From: a virus
Reading direction: 5' to 3' (one strand)
DNA length: 5,521 nt
UHGV virus genome: UHGV-0380108
The translations under genes were made by a program, and so were the position numbers. The notes under the pieces are model-generated. The model made no database searches, was not told the DNA's origin, and worked only from the letters and a program-made list of their open reading frames with translations. This document shows, one piece after another, positions 1-5,521 of this stretch. The first letter of the stretch is position 1. Every line of letters begins with the position of its first letter.

Positions 1-2
1 AA

Positions 3-374
3 AAACTATCGGCAGAAATCAGGAAGATAAACGCAGACGCATGCAGCGGAATGGCCCAAGCGGCATATTATTACGCAGCGGGCGAAGCCCAAAAAGCGGA
101 AGCAAAAATGCTTGAAGCGAAAAAGAGAACCGAGGAGGCAACCGCAGATCTGCGAGAACTTCAATATTGGACCGAAATAGCGAATACGATTATCAGACTG
201 GCACAAATAGTGGGGAACCTGGCAATCGGAGGGAAAACAGGAAAACTAATCAGAGAATACACGGAAAAAAGGATGAATGAAACACCCCCCAAAAATTCAT
301 CAACGGTAACGCAGCACTATGATCCAGAAATGAAATTTAAGGGAGTAGACAAAACTGTGACAACAAAATGGTAG
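3..374 (+). CDS. 3' portion of an ORF already open at the window start (frame 3, no stop from base 3 to TGG-TAG at 372..374). Most likely the C-terminal ~124 aa of the VP2-like pilot/minor capsid protein continuing from 4687..5521 across a circular junction. Otherwise an independent 107-aa ORF starting at ATG 51.
   Basis: Translating frame 3 from base 3 gives KLSAEIRKINADACSG-MAQAAYYY... with no stop upstream of the track's ATG at 51. The ORF at the 3' end of the window (4687..5521, frame 1) ends on codon position 1 (g). Joining g + aa (bases 1-2) gives GAA, and the next codon starts at base 3, so the two ORFs are in the same frame across a 5,521-nt circle. Composition is A/K/E-rich and helical, as expected for the distal part of a pilot protein. 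Confidence 0.5.
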   Translation, partial: KLSAEIRKINADACSGMAQAAYYYAAGEAQKAEAKMLEAKKRTEEATADLRELQYWTEIANTIIRLAQIVGNLAIGGKTGKLIREYTEKRMNETPPKNSSTVTQHYDPEMKFKGVDKTVTTKW

Positions 375-413: not shown

Positions 414-1682
414 GTGTGTCTATATCCAAGTATCATAGAGAACCCAAAGTACGCCAAATCGAATAAAAACGGCAAAAGGGCAAGGGATCGCCGTCTAAGG
501 TGGATCCAAATTCCATGTGGATATTGCGAAGAGTGCAGACGCGCAAAAGCAAATGAATGGAGAGTAAGATTGATGGAAGAAGTAAAAAATAATCCTAAAA
601 ACTCTATATTTGCAACGCTGACATTCTCCGAGGAAAGCCTAAAAAAACTAGAATATGACGAAAAAGAACCGAACAAAGCACCTCAGAAGGCAATCAGCCT
701 ATTCAGAAAACGATGGTGGAAAAAGTATAAAACACCACTCAAACACTGGCTAATCACAGAAATGGGGCATGACAACACCAAGAGGATACATCTGCACGGC
801 ATCATATGGACAGAACTAACAGAGGAACAGTTCGAAAAGGAATGGGGGTACGGCTGGATATTCTTTGGGTATGAAGTAAACGAGAAAACAATAAACTACA
901 TCGTAAAATATGTGACAAAGAGAGACGAAGATAATCCTGAATTCAACGGGAAGATATTCACTTCAAAAGGGATTGGAGCAAGCTATATAAACAAGTACTC
1001 GCTTAACAGGCATAGATATCAGGATAAATTTACAGAGGAAACATACAAGGCAGCTTCAGGAACAAGAATAGCGCTGCCGACATACTACAGGCAGAAAATA
1101 TGGACAGATCAAGAACGAGAGAACCTCCGAATCATAAAGGAGGAACAACAGGTGAGGTATTATAACAAAACCCCTATCAAAGTAGAAACACTAGAACAGT
1201 ATAAAGAGTATGTACACGCAGTAATATATTGGCAGTCAATTAAAAAGTATGACAGAAAGAGAAAAAAAAGAGATATGCAAAGGATATGCAGATCTAATCA
1301 TAAAGAAAGAAAAGTTAATCCGAGAAATATGGGAAGTAGAGTTTGCAATCAGAAAAATGGAAGATGTGCTGACGCGGAACAAGGTTATAAAGCCTTCGAA
1401 GGAAACATAGGGGACAGATCCAGTAATCTTGTAAAGCTGATCGGCGCAAACAGAGTGTCCCAACGGAACTTCAAATATGAGGGAACATACTACGTAACAG
1501 AGGATGGAGAGACGTACGACAAAGAATACGTAGACACTCATAAACCACTGAGAACCGGCATCGACTTCTACGAGGTGAGCAATTGGATATACAACGAAAG
1601 AAAACAATTGTACGAACCTATCGTCAGAAGGATAGTAATGATCAAAAACACCAACACTCAATTATCACTAAACTATGAATGA
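414..1682 (+). CDS. Rolling-circle replication initiation protein (Microviridae VP4 / phiX174 gpA-like HUH endonuclease), 422 aa, GTG start, with ~190-aa C-terminal extension
   Basis: N-terminus MCLYP... resembles the conserved M-x-C-x-x-P start of gokushovirus VP4, which supports GTG 414 as the start. A CxxC zinc-finger-like CGYCEECRRAK lies at aa 35-42. HUH motif I is FATLTF (nt 609..626), motif II is the H-x-H element HLHGIIW (nt 789..809), and motif III carries the catalytic tyrosines YIVKYVTK (nt 897..920). Downstream are SKGIG and LPTYYRQKIW elements typical of VP4. It is the only long + ORF in the region. The stop TGA at 1680..1682 overlaps the next ORF's start. Confidence 0.88.
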   Translation: MCLYPSIIENPKYAKSNKNGKRARDRRLRWIQIPCGYCEECRRAKANEWRVRLMEEVKNNPKNSIFATLTFSEESLKKLEYDEKEPNKAPQKAISLFRKRWWKKYKTPLKHWLITEMGHDNTKRIHLHGIIWTELTEEQFEKEWGYGWIFFGYEVNEKTINYIVKYVTKRDEDNPEFNGKIFTSKGIGASYINKYSLNRHRYQDKFTEETYKAASGTRIALPTYYRQKIWTDQERENLRIIKEEQQVRYYNKTPIKVETLEQYKEYVHAVIYWQSIKKYDRKRKKRDMQRICRSNHKERKVNPRNMGSRVCNQKNGRCADAEQGYKAFEGNIGDRSSNLVKLIGANRVSQRNFKYEGTYYVTEDGETYDKEYVDTHKPLRTGIDFYEVSNWIYNERKQLYEPIVRRIVMIKNTNTQLSLNYE

Positions 1683-1845
1683 AAAAGTAAAGAAGATCGT
1701 AAAATGGATCGCGGTAATCGCAGCTGCCATCGGCGCAGCAGCTGCCGTGATCATAGAACAGGGATGCACTCACAAGCACCACCTCAAGGCAAGCGGCATC
1801 AAAGTCGACACAATCGAAGTAACAACAACAACAAAAATTAAATAA
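1675..1845 (+). CDS. Small 56-aa protein with one predicted transmembrane helix (MNEKVKKIVKWIAVIAAAIGAAAAVIIEQGCTHKHHLKASGIKVDTIEVTTTTKIK); candidate membrane/lysis-associated protein
   Basis: ATG at 1675 lies in the overlap ATGAATGA with the Rep stop (1680..1682). The ORF is open in frame 1 to TAA at 1843..1845. A 20-residue uncharged hydrophobic stretch (nt ~1696..1755) is flanked by K-rich N-terminal and charged C-terminal segments. It is tightly packed against the next ORF (taa c ATG). It falls below the length threshold of the supplied ORF track. Confidence 0.45.
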   Translation: MNEKVKKIVKWIAVIAAAIGAAAAVIIEQGCTHKHHLKASGIKVDTIEVTTTTKIK

Positions 1846-1846
1846 C

Positions 1847-2152
1847 ATGAACAAAAAATTCAGAAATCAGCTACTCGCTGAAAGCGGAAAAAAAGAGGCA
1901 GAAATCAAAAGTGTAAACCTCGAAATCGAAGAAAGAGTAGAGTCGAAAAACGGCATATTCGTACTGGTCCGCAACAAGAAAAACAAATGGGTGATCACAA
2001 TGTGCGGCGCGATCATAAACGGAAAAGAATTCAACACTAAAGAGGAAGCTGAAGAACACATAGCTAAAAAAGAGTGGGAAGACATCCTGACCGCAACATT
2101 CGTATTCATCCTGCACGTAAACGGAGAAATGAAAAACACTGAAAAAGAATAA
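1847..2152 (+). CDS. Hypothetical protein, 101 aa (MNKKFRNQLLAESGKKEAEIKSV...), no recognisable family
   Basis: ATG lies 1 nt after the previous stop and ends 3 nt before the capsid gene start. Orientation and codon usage match the flanking phage genes. The N-terminus is K/E-rich and the C-terminal half is hydrophobic (ILTATFVFILHV). Its position between Rep and the major capsid gene is where small accessory/DNA-binding ORFs sit in gokushovirus-like genomes. Confidence 0.5.
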   Translation: MNKKFRNQLLAESGKKEAEIKSVNLEIEERVESKNGIFVLVRNKKNKWVITMCGAIINGKEFNTKEEAEEHIAKKEWEDILTATFVFILHVNGEMKNTEKE

Positions 2153-2155
2153 GCC

Positions 2156-4204
2156 ATGAAAAAAACACTAGGAGGAGACAGAATTCGAAGCGAAAGCAAA
2201 ATGGAAGTATATCTGCCTAATTTCGGCAGATCGTCTCACAACGTAGGAAAGATAATCCGAACATCACAGGCATGCGGCACGATCGTTCCCTATTGGTGTC
2301 AAATAGGTATGGATGGAACGACGTTCTACATCGATATCACAACGAAGGTGAAAACGCTGCCAACAACCGGGCCTGTATTCGGAAGCTTCAAACACCAGAT
2401 CGATGTATTCGTAATTCCGATCAGGCTCTACATAGCAGCGCTGCACAATAATGCTCTAGGAGTAGGGTTGAATATGGATAAAGTATTACTACCACAATTT
2501 CAAGTGTATACAGCTAATACGTCAATTTACGAAAACGACTTCAACAGAGGGCAAGTCAATCCAAGCTCGCTGCTCTCATACCTGGGGATAAAAGGGTTCG
2601 GATACTCCGAAGTCAATCAATACCTCCGAAGATTTCCTGCAATATTCAATCTGGCGTATTGGGATATATTCAAAAACTACTATGCAAATAAACAAGAAGA
2701 ATATGCATATGTAATCACTGGAATAAACCATATCTGGAAGTCGATCTTCATAGGAGATGGATACGTTTGGGATAAAGAATGGTACGAAAACTCAGACTTA
2801 CCATACGAGGTTACTCCGACAGAACAGAAACCAAAGTACATCAGACTGGAATTCGAGGAAAAGATCTCTCCCGAAGAAGTCGGTGAGATACAGTTCCTGA
2901 CAAATAATCCAAACACGCCAACAGTAGCAAGCAACAGGATAACAAAGCTTGGAGACTCCTTTGTGTTTGAACGAACAGATCCGGAGGCACCGGGACTTAG
3001 AGAACCGAGCAATCCGAGAAAGGCAACCAACGTTTACATGTACAAAATCAAGAAGCCCATTAAATTTGCATACAGAATAACCACAAGCAGCGGGGAGCAG
3101 ATGATAACAATGCCGGACAACAAGAAGATCCAGCTAACGCCATTTCCATTAAAAAACATCGACGATATGCGAACTTCAATACTGGCAGCTCCCAGTTCTT
3201 CGGCGTTTGTGATGGATAACAGCAAAATGCCGTACGCAGCAGCAACGAAAACTCTAGATCTGCCAAATCATGACTACTCAAAAACATATCACAGCTCAAA
3301 TGCATGGTATTCACAAGCAGGGCTGGCAGTGAAAACATATCTGAGCGACAGGTTCAACAATTGGCTGAACACAGAATGGATCGACGGAACAACAGGAGGA
3401 ATCAATGCGATTACGGCAGTAGATGTAAGCGACGGAAAACTCACTATGGACGCTCTAATTCTCCAGAAAAAAATATTCAATATGCTGAACCGCGTGGCTA
3501 TTACAGACGGCACCTACCAAGCATGGAGAGAGGCGACATACGGAATCAGAAGCGCAACACTACCCGAATCTCCTGTGTTCTGCGGCGGAATGCAAAGCGA
3601 AATCGCATTCGACGAAATTGTATCGAATTCGGCAACAGACGAAGAACCGCTGGGAACACTTGCCGGCCGAGGAGTTGCGACCATGTACAAATCCGGAAGA
3701 GGGTTAAAAATCAAATGTACAGAACCCAGTATAATCATGGCTCTAGGATCAATTACACCTCGAGTTGATTACAGCCAAGGCAACAAATGGTGGACAAGAC
3801 TGCAAAGCATGGATGACTTCCACAAACCAACATTAGACGCAATTGGGTTCCAAGAACTGATAGCAGAAGAAGCAGCTGCATGGAGTACGGAAACGACTGA
3901 GGACTACACACACACGTATCAATCACTAGGAAAACAGCCGTCATGGATCGAATACACAACGGATGTGAATGAAACATACGGCGACTTTGCCGCAGGAATG
4001 CCATTAGCATTTATGTGCTTGAACAGAGTGTACGAACAAGACGTGGACGGTACAATCGGCAATACCTCAACGTATATTGACCCTACGATATACAACAACA
4101 TATTTGCAGAGTCGAGAATGAGTTCGCAGAACTTCTGGGTACAAGTAGCATTCGATGTAACAGCACGCCGGGTAATGTCAGCAAAACAAATTCCAAATTT
4201 ATAA
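2156..4204 (+). CDS. Major capsid protein (Microviridae VP1 / phiX174 F-like single jelly-roll capsid protein), 682 aa
   Basis: It is the longest ORF in the window. The N-terminal region FGRSSHNVGKI...FVIPIRLY recalls the conserved N-terminal block of gokushovirus VP1 (RSxHSF...FFVPLRLIW), from memory. Size (600-780 aa) and position fit a microvirus VP1 carrying a large inserted surface loop. An alternative start at ATG 2201 (MEVYLPNF...) is possible, but the AGGAGG at 2169..2174 is 26 nt upstream of it and too far to act as an SD. Confidence 0.88.
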   Translation: MKKTLGGDRIRSESKMEVYLPNFGRSSHNVGKIIRTSQACGTIVPYWCQIGMDGTTFYIDITTKVKTLPTTGPVFGSFKHQIDVFVIPIRLYIAALHNNALGVGLNMDKVLLPQFQVYTANTSIYENDFNRGQVNPSSLLSYLGIKGFGYSEVNQYLRRFPAIFNLAYWDIFKNYYANKQEEYAYVITGINHIWKSIFIGDGYVWDKEWYENSDLPYEVTPTEQKPKYIRLEFEEKISPEEVGEIQFLTNNPNTPTVASNRITKLGDSFVFERTDPEAPGLREPSNPRKATNVYMYKIKKPIKFAYRITTSSGEQMITMPDNKKIQLTPFPLKNIDDMRTSILAAPSSSAFVMDNSKMPYAAATKTLDLPNHDYSKTYHSSNAWYSQAGLAVKTYLSDRFNNWLNTEWIDGTTGGINAITAVDVSDGKLTMDALILQKKIFNMLNRVAITDGTYQAWREATYGIRSATLPESPVFCGGMQSEIAFDEIVSNSATDEEPLGTLAGRGVATMYKSGRGLKIKCTEPSIIMALGSITPRVDYSQGNKWWTRLQSMDDFHKPTLDAIGFQELIAEEAAAWSTETTEDYTHTYQSLGKQPSWIEYTTDVNETYGDFAAGMPLAFMCLNRVYEQDVDGTIGNTSTYIDPTIYNNIFAESRMSSQNFWVQVAFDVTARRVMSAKQIPNL

Positions 4205-4686: not shown

Positions 4687-5521
4687 ATGGACTTCAAAAA
4701 ACTACTAGAACTACTCGAGAAAGGAAGCAGCATGATGAACCCTATCTCAGGTATCATTGGCAACGCATCGGGAATTCTCAATATGCTAGGCATAGGCAGG
4801 AAAAAACAGATACAGCAGCAGAAAGAAATGGTGGAGAACGCAGCTCAAATAAACTACAAATACGGAGAAATGGCGGCGGAGAACGCGTTCGAAAGGCAGC
4901 AGGTGTTATATAACAGAACCTACCAAGACCAAAGCTACGCCAACCAAGTTGCACAAATGGATGCGGCAGGATTATCTCCCGGCCTAATGTACGGCAAAGG
5001 AGGTGCCGGAGGCGGAGGCGCCGGTTCAACAACAGGTGCTCCAATAGGAGCAACAGGAGCTGCCGGTGCAGGAGCAGCGGCCGATCCAAACATGCAGCTG
5101 CAGGCACTGATGTCCCTGCGACAAATACGAATGAATGAACGGAAGAATGAAGCGGAAATCAATCTGCTCAATACGCAGGCAGAGGCACTCAAGGCGGAGG
5201 CAGGCAAGAACCAGGAGGAAACCCAGTCAATAATTGAAAAGAGACTATGGGAAGTAAAGCAAGAGATGTTTAAAGGATGGAAAGGCTTCATCGATACAGC
5301 GAACCAACTGTGGGATCAGATGGTAAAATGGCAGCCCACAGAAAAGGTAACAATCGACGGCAAGGAGGTAGAAGTACCGAAATACTTCGAAATAGAAGAT
5401 GATAAATTCGGGAAGATCATATTTGGAGAGGAATCATTTCAAGGCGGCATGATGAAGGCCGAAAAGCAAATCCTCGAGGGAACAGCAGCAATTAAAACTC
5501 TAGAAAGCATATACGCAGACG
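4687..5521 (+). CDS. DNA pilot / minor capsid protein (Microviridae VP2, phiX174 H-like), 5' portion (278 codons), running off the 3' end of the window
   Basis: No stop occurs in frame 1 from ATG 4687 to the window end. The translation MDFKKLLELLEKGSSMMNPISGIIGN...QIQQQKEMVENAAQINYKYGEMAAENAFERQQVLYNRTYQDQSYANQVAQMDAAGLSPGLMYGKGGAGGGGAGSTTGAPIGATGAAGAGAAADPNMQ... carries the gokushovirus-VP2 hallmarks I recall: a Q-rich segment, AGL(N/S)PxLMYG and a Gly/Ala-rich linker, followed by a coiled-coil-like E/K/Q-rich region. The ORF is missing from the supplied track only because it lacks a stop inside the window. Confidence 0.8.
   Translation, partial: MDFKKLLELLEKGSSMMNPISGIIGNASGILNMLGIGRKKQIQQQKEMVENAAQINYKYGEMAAENAFERQQVLYNRTYQDQSYANQVAQMDAAGLSPGLMYGKGGAGGGGAGSTTGAPIGATGAAGAGAAADPNMQLQALMSLRQIRMNERKNEAEINLLNTQAEALKAEAGKNQEETQSIIEKRLWEVKQEMFKGWKGFIDTANQLWDQMVKWQPTEKVTIDGKEVEVPKYFEIEDDKFGKIIFGEESFQGGMMKAEKQILEGTAAIKTLESIYAD

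Follow-up and report, generated by a model that had tools for sequence, protein, structure and literature searches.

Microviruses of the type considered here count among the most abundant human gut phages; how they leave the host cell is unknown, and their genes are unnamed beyond those for capsid, pilot and Rep (PMC3394797; PMC9239249). Only for phiX174 has the mechanism of lysis been established (PMC3394797), and lysis-associated accessory genes have been listed for other microvirus families only (PMC9239249). This study concerns a short open reading frame (ORF) of the virus genome UHGV-0380108, located at 1675..1845 on the + strand and called ORF56 below; the whole analysed stretch of DNA, 5521 nucleotides (nt), is referred to as the window. 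ORF56 is almost certainly a real protein-coding gene, and comparison with related genomes indicates with good confidence that its product, of 56 amino acids (aa), is a divergent branch of a single lipoprotein-derived microvirus family.

The gene of phiX174 protein E is overprinted in scaffold gene D; the E helix requires Pro21 and the host protein SlyD, and E inhibits MraY. The ORF56 protein resembles E in being a small microvirus protein with one N-terminal transmembrane (TM) helix of apparently sequence-specific function and a laxer C-terminus, encoded in a genome without an endolysin. It differs in that its gene is free-standing, its helix is Ala/Gly-rich and without Pro, and its homologs are lipoproteins; no Pfam family, the E family included, was matched by the protein at E ≤ 10. 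Protein K of phiX174 is an analogue by position and size, a hydrophobic protein of 56 aa with a gene that begins within the 3' end of replication gene A. K is, however, non-essential, its gene overlaps A and C out of frame, and it has neither a lipobox or Cys motif nor similarity to the present family.

The colicin lysis or bacteriocin release proteins (Lysis_col) are made as 45-52-aa precursors that carry a lipoprotein signal and yield a mature lipopeptide of ~28 aa; their expression permeabilises the envelope. Their build is thus close to that of the relatives of ORF56, but they are plasmid-borne in Enterobacteriaceae and act through the outer-membrane phospholipase A, causing quasi-lysis without peptidoglycan breakdown. 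The cleaved, stable signal peptide of pCloDF13 has been reported to be toxic itself, which parallels a family where signal and peptide can both be selected. The Lysis_col profile gave no Pfam match for the ORF56 protein or for those of six relatives at E ≤ 10, and the ORF56 protein does not conform to the lipobox rule given below. Also the o-spanins (Rz1-type) are small phage lipoproteins of the outer membrane, acting in the last step of lysis; they differ in needing an inner-membrane i-spanin, usually from an overlapping gene, and in being Pro-rich. Just a weak o-spanin match (E 0.11), confined to the signal region, was obtained, and no partner ORF was found in the window genome.

The lipoproteins Llp (phage T5), Cor (T1/phi80) and Rtp45 (Rtp) of virulent siphophages, which serve superinfection exclusion, are the best-documented precedent for the build seen in the relatives of ORF56: they bind the receptor from inside, Rtp45 partly by beta-strand pairing, and so keep virions from adsorbing to infected cells or to fragments left after lysis (PMC9586334, PMC12685063). 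They are small, face the periplasm with a short strand-forming effector, carry an N-terminal signal and a lipobox Cys, as do the relatives of ORF56, and are conserved in virulent phages (PMC9586334, PMC12685063). On the other hand, their mature part is ~2x longer (6-7 kDa vs 3-4 kDa) with no detectable sequence similarity, and their genes lie beside the receptor-binding protein gene in tailed dsDNA phages, while the clade of the window has a Glu at position -3 and a hyper-conserved helix. The ORF56 protein falls outside phiX174 E, the colicin lysis proteins, the spanins and the holin-endolysin systems and, strictly taken, also outside the canonical lipoproteins; judged from its sequence, it would be most like a membrane-tethered mini-effector.

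Coding sequence and selection

ORF56 runs from the ATG at 1675 to the TAA at 1843-1845 and encodes the product MNEKVKKIVKWIAVIAAAIGAAAAVIIEQGCTHKHHLKASGIKVDTIEVTTTTKIK. Its start codon lies in ATGAATGA (1675..1682, +) together with the Rep stop TGA (1680-1682), an arrangement kept in 35 of the 36 relatives. The overlap with Rep is 8 nt, the gene being otherwise free-standing, and translation is probably coupled to Rep termination by termination-reinitiation. The next ATG is found at 1847, one nt past the stop. The initial annotation, made from the window alone, had described this short ORF, its start coupled to the Rep stop and its tight packing against the following gene, and in these respects it was accurate.

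The size of ORF56 alone is within chance, as 58 ORFs of 30 aa or more are present in the window. Conservation was tested with 37 genomes of the IMG/VR database (Rep ~78% identical), 36 of which were usable. All 36 have exactly 56 codons, followed by stop-N-ATG. The pairwise Nei-Gojobori ratio of nonsynonymous to synonymous change (dN/dS) was 0.090 overall, 0.029 in codons 4-31 and 0.186 in the tail, placing the strongest constraint in the helix region. A comparison with related genomes had been proposed as a check in the initial annotation, and it bore the gene out: every usable relative keeps it, and the hydrophobic segment is its most constrained part. The proportion of synonymous differences (pS) was 0.33-0.36 with a proportion of nonsynonymous differences (pN) of 0.014-0.038, a pattern seen solely in the ORF56 frame; the remaining five frames show dN/dS >1 or are broken by stops in most relatives. 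Residues 1-31 are nearly invariant while the synonymous codons vary (A21, for example, is GCA, GCT, GCG or GCC), and the constraint therefore acts on the protein and not on the DNA or RNA.

It is hence hardly credible that the region is non-coding, that is, a chance ORF, an overlapping DNA or RNA element such as an origin, promoter or structure, or the template of an antisense ORF. The large number of ORFs in the genome and an antisense ORF of 70 aa (1642..1854, - strand), which covers all of ORF56 and is open in the window and a few relatives, would agree with it. That antisense frame, however, has 1-3 stops in most relatives and was rejected, as was a nucleotide-level origin or structure as the cause of the conservation, since synonymous sites vary at pS ~0.36. 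With amino acids fixed in one frame only, codons varying, and length, start and stop kept in 36/36 usable relatives, the non-coding explanation is refuted as far as sequence analysis goes.

The dN/dS of ORF56 between the window and the relatives (0.115) is like that of the capsid protein (MCP; 0.114), the Rep core (0.094) and a 107-aa ORF (0.106), the pilot protein having 0.065, and its product has the highest identity of the proteins of the genome, 90%. Public gene catalogues contain 184 ORF56 protein clusters at 80-96% identity. The earlier description of the gene as unannotated is true of the supplied track, although one cluster is present in nr as 'MAG TPA: hypothetical protein [Microviridae sp.]'.

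The protein begins with a basic n-region, M1-K10 (MNEKVKKIVK; 1675..1704, +), with a net charge of +3, which is predicted to be cytoplasmic by the positive-inside rule; M1, N2, E3, K4, V5, K6 and K10 are invariant in alignment A1 of the window family. The hydrophobic helix W11-I27 (WIAVIAAAIGAAAAVII; 1705..1755, +) has a Kyte-Doolittle (KD) mean of 2.59, or 2.33 over 19 residues (I8-I27), in line with the single hydrophobic helix claimed earlier. Ala and Gly make up 10 of its 17 residues and form two invariant small-xxx-small ladders, A13/A17/A21 and A16/G20/A24. No other segment exceeds KD 1.8 in the open + strand frames of the genome; no other + strand frame of the whole genome has a hydrophobic 17-mer at KD ≥ 1.8. 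The motif E28-Q29-G30-C31 (1756..1767, +) follows directly after the helix, at the position where the relatives have a lipobox. It is invariant, with synonymous changes in each of its four codons and an acidic residue at -3, and had been overlooked in the initial annotation.

The 25-aa tail T32-K56 (THKHHLKASGIKVDTIEVTTTTKIK; 1768..1842, +), with dN/dS 0.19, is predicted to be periplasmic and, together with C31, appears by hhalign homologous to the mature lipopeptide of one subfamily of relatives, (c) below. It had been called charged; it is mildly basic, with no more than 5 K, 1 D and 1 E in addition to 3 His. A run of four Thr which had been listed as a feature is not conserved, the relatives having TTTT, STST or SKSI. 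AlphaFold2 with the family alignment predicted a helix over residues 3-32 and a tail with a predicted local distance difference test score (pLDDT) <50. The hypothesis of a Cys/His metal site in the tail (C-T-H-K-H-H) was dropped because the His positions vary (THKHY, TNKYH etc.).

A family of small lipoproteins in related microviruses

Six GenBank relatives with capsids 46-57% identical share the gene order, with one to four small ORFs between Rep and capsid. Five of the six have there an ORF of 63-71 aa with a charged N-terminus, a hydrophobic helix, a lipobox (TTSC, LSSC, MQSC, LTSC, ASSC) and a conserved tail; also FTSC is found among the canonical lipoprotein signals of the relatives with capsid identity of at least 46%. 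When all fetched genomes were scanned by rule, every relative at or above 46% MCP identity proved to have exactly one lipobox ORF, except for one genome, L038. More distant relatives have further versions, with lipoboxes LTSC, VQSC, GVSC, LLAC, IGGC and TIGC, and in a Paludibacteraceae prophage on a 104-kb contig a family member lies directly upstream of the capsid gene. Three members lack annotation in their GenBank records: 1088..1300 in L040 (MG945511.1; LSSC), 4801..5007 in L043 (OM869549.1; ASSC) and 4925..5116 in L041 (PQ007273.1; MQSC).

The family was defined as proteins of 50-100 aa encoded on the coding strand between Rep and capsid, with an n-region, an h-region of ~17-24 residues, a Cys and a tail of 25-35 aa, the tail including a D[ST]-hydrophobic-x-hydrophobic strand and a Lys-rich end. 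ORF56 has this architecture and position. Four subfamilies were distinguished, with mature peptides C-TVTHKVVQSAYNT.TGDSIVIRYEQTGKG in subfamily (a), C-NAKQFVSQSASTFKNGDTVVTKITYEQVGTIKK in subfamily (b) and C-SASYMLHKKGVHTDSVEVWIKTKT in subfamily (c) (L046-L049), subfamily (d) being the window clade. The Cys of all subfamilies falls in one column of the joint MAFFT alignment, the sole invariant one besides Met1, and C31 is invariant in the 37 genomes and 120 clusters of the window clade.

Full-length hhalign of the window family against subfamily (a) gave a probability of 81% (E 1.3e-5) with Cys on Cys. Because hydrophobic composition can inflate such scores, the regions after the Cys were also compared alone, with significance assessed by 30 column shuffles. 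The window tail matched subfamily (c) with a probability of 80% (E 1.4e-5) over 24 ungapped columns; the score of 22.2 was reached by 0/30 shuffles (6.8 +/- 2.5, maximum 15.1). The link of (d) to (a) and (b) would rest on bridging sequences, the full-length profile and synteny. The bridging sequences came from a profile search of 1.84 billion cluster representatives, which returned just 59 proteins, essentially all of 52-132 aa. Among them, P0284 and P0289 (C..SGVH.DTV[RK]YEQ; GVHxDTVxYEQ) combine the motif of (c) and (d) with the YEQ motif of (a) and (b), the (c/d)-like P0287 and the (a/b)-like P0250 have near-identical signal peptides, and P0281 has LTQGC, one substitution away from the EQGC of the window. 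The two bridging members examined have microvirus contexts, adjoining Rep homologs.

In a neighbor-joining (NJ) tree of the capsid, the gene is present throughout the clade holding (a)-(d), with a single loss in L038, and is patchy in more distant clades. Subfamilies (c) and (d) are not sisters in this tree despite their similar tails, and exchange between lineages, or tree error, is therefore possible. As the other members have canonical lipoprotein signals, the hydrophobic segment was ancestrally a cleavable signal and the ancestral effector a lipopeptide of 26-35 aa, the size of the conserved mature peptide in the relatives. The genomes of type (a) are 72% identical in the mature peptide, 57% in MCP and 38% in the signal peptide; the better conservation of the mature peptide than of the capsid points to a conserved host target.

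Profile searches of Pfam, PHROG, NCBIfam and PDB with the ORF56 protein, the relatives and the family alignment gave only weak matches to hydrophobic N-termini and no family, and tblastn of the 56-aa protein against deposited phages gave no match. Nothing on a lipoprotein or on a defined lysis gene of Alpavirinae-type microviruses turned up in full-text literature searches. The family is apparently undescribed, and small phage lipoproteins and single-TM effectors of this sort had not been described before in this virus family. The proposal of a single-TM protein holds in that ORF56 is truly a gene, is conserved, and encodes a small product directed to the membrane, the only such on the coding strand, yet it is no orphan.

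Replacement of the lipobox in the window clade

A lipobox has the consensus [LVI][ASTVI][GAS]C, or as a PROSITE-type pattern {DERK}(6)-[LIVMFWSTAG](2)-[LIVMFYSTAGCQ]-[AGS]-C, with the Cys within approximately residues 15-35. The ORF56 protein has the n- and h-regions of a lipoprotein (K4, K6, K7 and K10, then uncharged W11-I27 with KD 2.59) and also the invariant Cys at +1, C31. By regular expression it fails the lipobox rule, having I-E-Q-G-C31 with Glu at -3, while almost every full-length family member outside the window clade passes. No lipobox rule known to us allows a charge at -3. In the window clade the motif has the fixed form [I/M/L]-E-Q-G-C, and [E/D][Q/H]GC, that is E or D at -3, is found in 119 of the 120 clusters. 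On this sequence pattern, E-Q-G-C is a selected motif and not a decayed lipobox.

Also the distribution of constraint differs between the subfamilies. Identity over the 22 residues before the Cys and after the Cys is 44% and 81% in subfamily (a) and 72% and 95% in subfamily (b), which is the normal pattern for secreted lipoproteins. The window clade is inverted, with 90% before and 70% after the Cys, the helix being favoured over the tail. From the fixed E-Q-G-C and the inverted constraint we infer that the helix is no longer discarded. The protein is very probably exported and membrane-tethered, and on balance the helix would be retained as a membrane anchor, or be functional after removal, as part of the functional molecule. 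In Bacteroidetes a Q-rule has been described for cleavage by signal peptidase I (PMC5837995). Such a cleavage before Q29 is unlikely, since -1 and -3 are Glu and Ile rather than those of A-x-A.

Possible functions of the protein

The reading placed first, though tentatively and by a small margin over superinfection exclusion, is that the ORF56 protein would be a lysis or envelope-breaching factor. The N-terminal helix would target it to the Sec pathway and the inner membrane, with the N-terminus in and the C-terminus out, and Cys31 and the 25-residue basic, strand-prone tail would be left at the periplasmic face. Other members of the family would be made as lipopeptides of 26-35 residues; in the window clade the lipobox would have turned into [I/M/L]-E-Q-G-C and purifying selection have moved from tail to helix, the helix, no longer removed or functional after removal, now being part of the effector. 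Tethered peptide and helix would then bind a conserved component of the host envelope that is accessible from the inner membrane, with a step of cell-wall precursor export or polymerisation, or an autolysin regulator, as candidate targets. Topology, lack of cleavage, target and lysis as the outcome are all predictions of this scheme. If the protein is retained in the inner membrane and shares its function with the lipidated relatives, its target should be cell-wall precursor or synthesis machinery, reachable from there, and not an outer-membrane receptor.

By coding-strand hydrophobicity ORF56 encodes the only membrane protein of the phage, and the sequence constraint on the helix, a trait also of helix-based single-gene lysis proteins, is what a working TM segment would show. 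When the six main products were scanned with Pfam and PHROG, just Rep and capsid were recognised and no endolysin, peptidase, holin or other lysis gene. To conclude by elimination that ORF56 is a lysis gene is, as an argument, weak: L038 and most of the more distant relatives are without any TM ORF and presumably still exit their hosts.

Several points weigh against a lysis function. In the whole genome of L038 (PQ006946.1), which among deposited relatives is the closest (capsid 57%), neither a lipoprotein nor a TM ORF is present, and no close relatives of L038 were found in IMG/VR. Of the 41 relatives that lack the lipoprotein, approximately 25 have at most a TM segment inside the pilot or capsid protein; exit in the group therefore apparently does not generally need such a protein, and the family may be an add-on. 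We know of no characterised single-gene lysis protein that is a lipoprotein, and the quasi-lysis of the colicin lysis lipoproteins, which does not breach peptidoglycan, would not release virions of 25-30 nm. A helix-based mechanism would need a change of mechanism if the ancestral effector was a lipopeptide, and there is no Pro in residues 1-31 of ORF56, unlike in phiX174 E with its Pro21. The post-Cys hhalign of the window tail was not significant against subfamilies (a) and (b), 6/30 and 17/30 shuffles reaching the score. E-Q-G-C may also leave Lgt and LspA of Bacteroidales unhindered, lipidation continuing through it as an atypical lipobox.

A few lipoprotein-less genomes have another small TM family, and most have none. 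This different single-TM ORF was found in the distant microviruses L055 (2213..2365), L072 (1908..2156), L097 (697..879) and L110 (2888..3070), with the motif ..[YW]EVV[AI]R.IPT...W.., and is possibly an alternative membrane or lysis protein.

The same loss in L038 and the patchy distribution in distant clades fit a dispensable function, and by analogy with Llp, Cor and Rtp45 it is possible, if doubtful, that the protein is a superinfection-exclusion or 'lytic conversion' factor. The exported peptide would bind the periplasmic side of the receptor or DNA-entry route of the phage and block adsorption or injection into infected cells, debris and vesicles, being lipid-anchored in the relatives and possibly also here if E-Q-G-C is processed. 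In size and build (signal peptide, lipobox, mature peptide of 3-4 kDa) the canonical relatives match the periplasm-facing outer-membrane lipoproteins of virulent phages, and their mature peptides are strand-prone with the common D[ST]-hydrophobic-x-hydrophobic motif. There is no acidic lipoprotein export signal after the Cys, and the peptides would therefore face the periplasm (PMC13056109). Also the conservation of the mature peptide beyond that of the capsid fits the conserved periplasmic face of a host protein. In the window clade, however, the tail is less and the helix more constrained, the reverse of what is expected of an outer-membrane lipoprotein effector. Glu at -3 may hold the protein in the inner membrane, and a tail of 25 residues is too short to reach the outer membrane, so that it would need to act at the inner membrane. 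Accessory gene repertoires of microviruses have moreover been reported as very limited (PMC9239249), and no PHROG with an exclusion annotation was matched, the best matches (E>0.002) being function-unknown families over the hydrophobic N-terminus.

Dispensability in L038 would also suit an accessory envelope factor, an explanation regarded as unlikely, either as a destabiliser of the outer membrane after cell-wall failure, in the manner of spanins or disruptins, or as a protein like phiX174 K that tunes burst size or anchors replication or assembly. The lipoprotein ancestry recalls the o-spanins, the mature peptides end in Lys-rich segments, and the position at the 3' end of the Rep gene and the length of 56 aa recall gene K. 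Against a spanin-like role, there is no i-spanin partner, no second TM ORF on the coding strand and no C-terminal TM segment of the kind found in unimolecular spanins, and the matches to spanin and holin PHROGs are weak, sub-threshold and restricted to the hydrophobic N-terminus. A constraint equal to that of capsid and Rep, together with retention in the deep clade, argues for a more than marginal role.

Genome context and hosts

The window is a complete circular microvirus genome cut inside a pilot-like gene, as a pilot-like ORF of 402 aa (4687..5521 and 1..374, +) spans both of its ends. The gene order is pilot, Rep, ORF56, a 101-aa ORF, capsid and the 107-aa ORF. Rep (414..1682, +; 422 aa) matches Pfam REP_ORF2-G2P and PHROG 942, and the capsid protein (2156..4204, +; 682 aa) matches Phage_F and PHROG 514. 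Homologs of the 101-aa product (1847..2152, +), whose gene starts 1 nt past the ORF56 stop, precede the capsid gene in all relatives. There is no near deposited phage, the best capsid identity being 57%.

Large contigs from Paludibacteraceae, Phocaeicola and two Dysgonomonas genomes contain integrated relatives. Bacteroidales are therefore the hosts of the group, which corresponds to the Alpavirinae-like microviruses. The only cultured Bacteroides microvirus, phiHBP1, has an MCP identity of just 22% and lacks the gene, and is too distant to serve as a model. One complete member of the window clade (L089, NZ_JACWEU010000076.1, 5673 nt; capsid 83%, ORF56 with EQGC) forms a scaffold of its own within an assembly of Acinetobacter lwoffii; contamination is the more likely explanation than a host signal, because the integrated relatives are all in Bacteroidales. 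Other contigs with members of the window clade, L001/L044 (IMGVR_UViG_3300007105_000184, 11646 nt) and L018 (8554 nt), are far longer than one genome (~5.6 kb) and may be concatemeric assemblies.

Additional features of the Rep region

A 53-aa ORF (MTEREKKEICKGYADLIIKKEKLIREIWEVEF...; 1249..1410, +) lies out of frame in the C-terminal extension of Rep and is open in 37/37 relatives. With E 2.4e-8 (single target) it matches the hidden Markov model of a coiled-coil-like ORF that stands free behind Rep in L038-L043, and in the overlap dN/dS is 0.22 in its own frame vs 1.10 in the Rep frame. On this pattern it is likely an overprinted gene missed by standard annotation.

Rep of the window is ~70-120 aa longer than in distant relatives (422 aa vs 303-354 aa). 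Its residues ~280-332 are unconstrained, while the last ~90 residues have dN/dS 0.35 and weakly resemble another free-standing small ORF family of the relatives ('..vyvdedGviytkk..'; conditional E 0.005). The comparison suggests a gene fusion onto Rep in the window clade (1314..1682, +; residues ~300-422).

Significance of the family

An unnamed short ORF has now become a defined family, with a signal peptide, an invariant Cys and a mini-effector more conserved than the capsid, and the window clade is a natural variant of it in which the lipobox is replaced and the helix is under selection. The family is missing from Pfam, PHROGs, NCBIfam and PDB and is unannotated in several GenBank records, so that annotation pipelines miss it. 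Be its role lysis or the masking of a receptor, the peptide should lead to a conserved envelope protein of Bacteroidales that is exploited by phages. It is conceivable, though speculative on the present sequence comparisons, that gut Bacteroidales microviruses lyse their hosts through a lipoprotein-derived single-gene system, in which a periplasmic peptide of 26-35 residues, lipid-tethered in most lineages and tethered by a retained, sequence-specific Ala/Gly helix here, would block or deregulate a conserved step of envelope biogenesis in Bacteroidota. If this were true, it would be the first lipoprotein-type amurin and the first lysis gene for Alpavirinae-like microviruses, and would suggest a new point of vulnerability in a phylum abundant in the gut.

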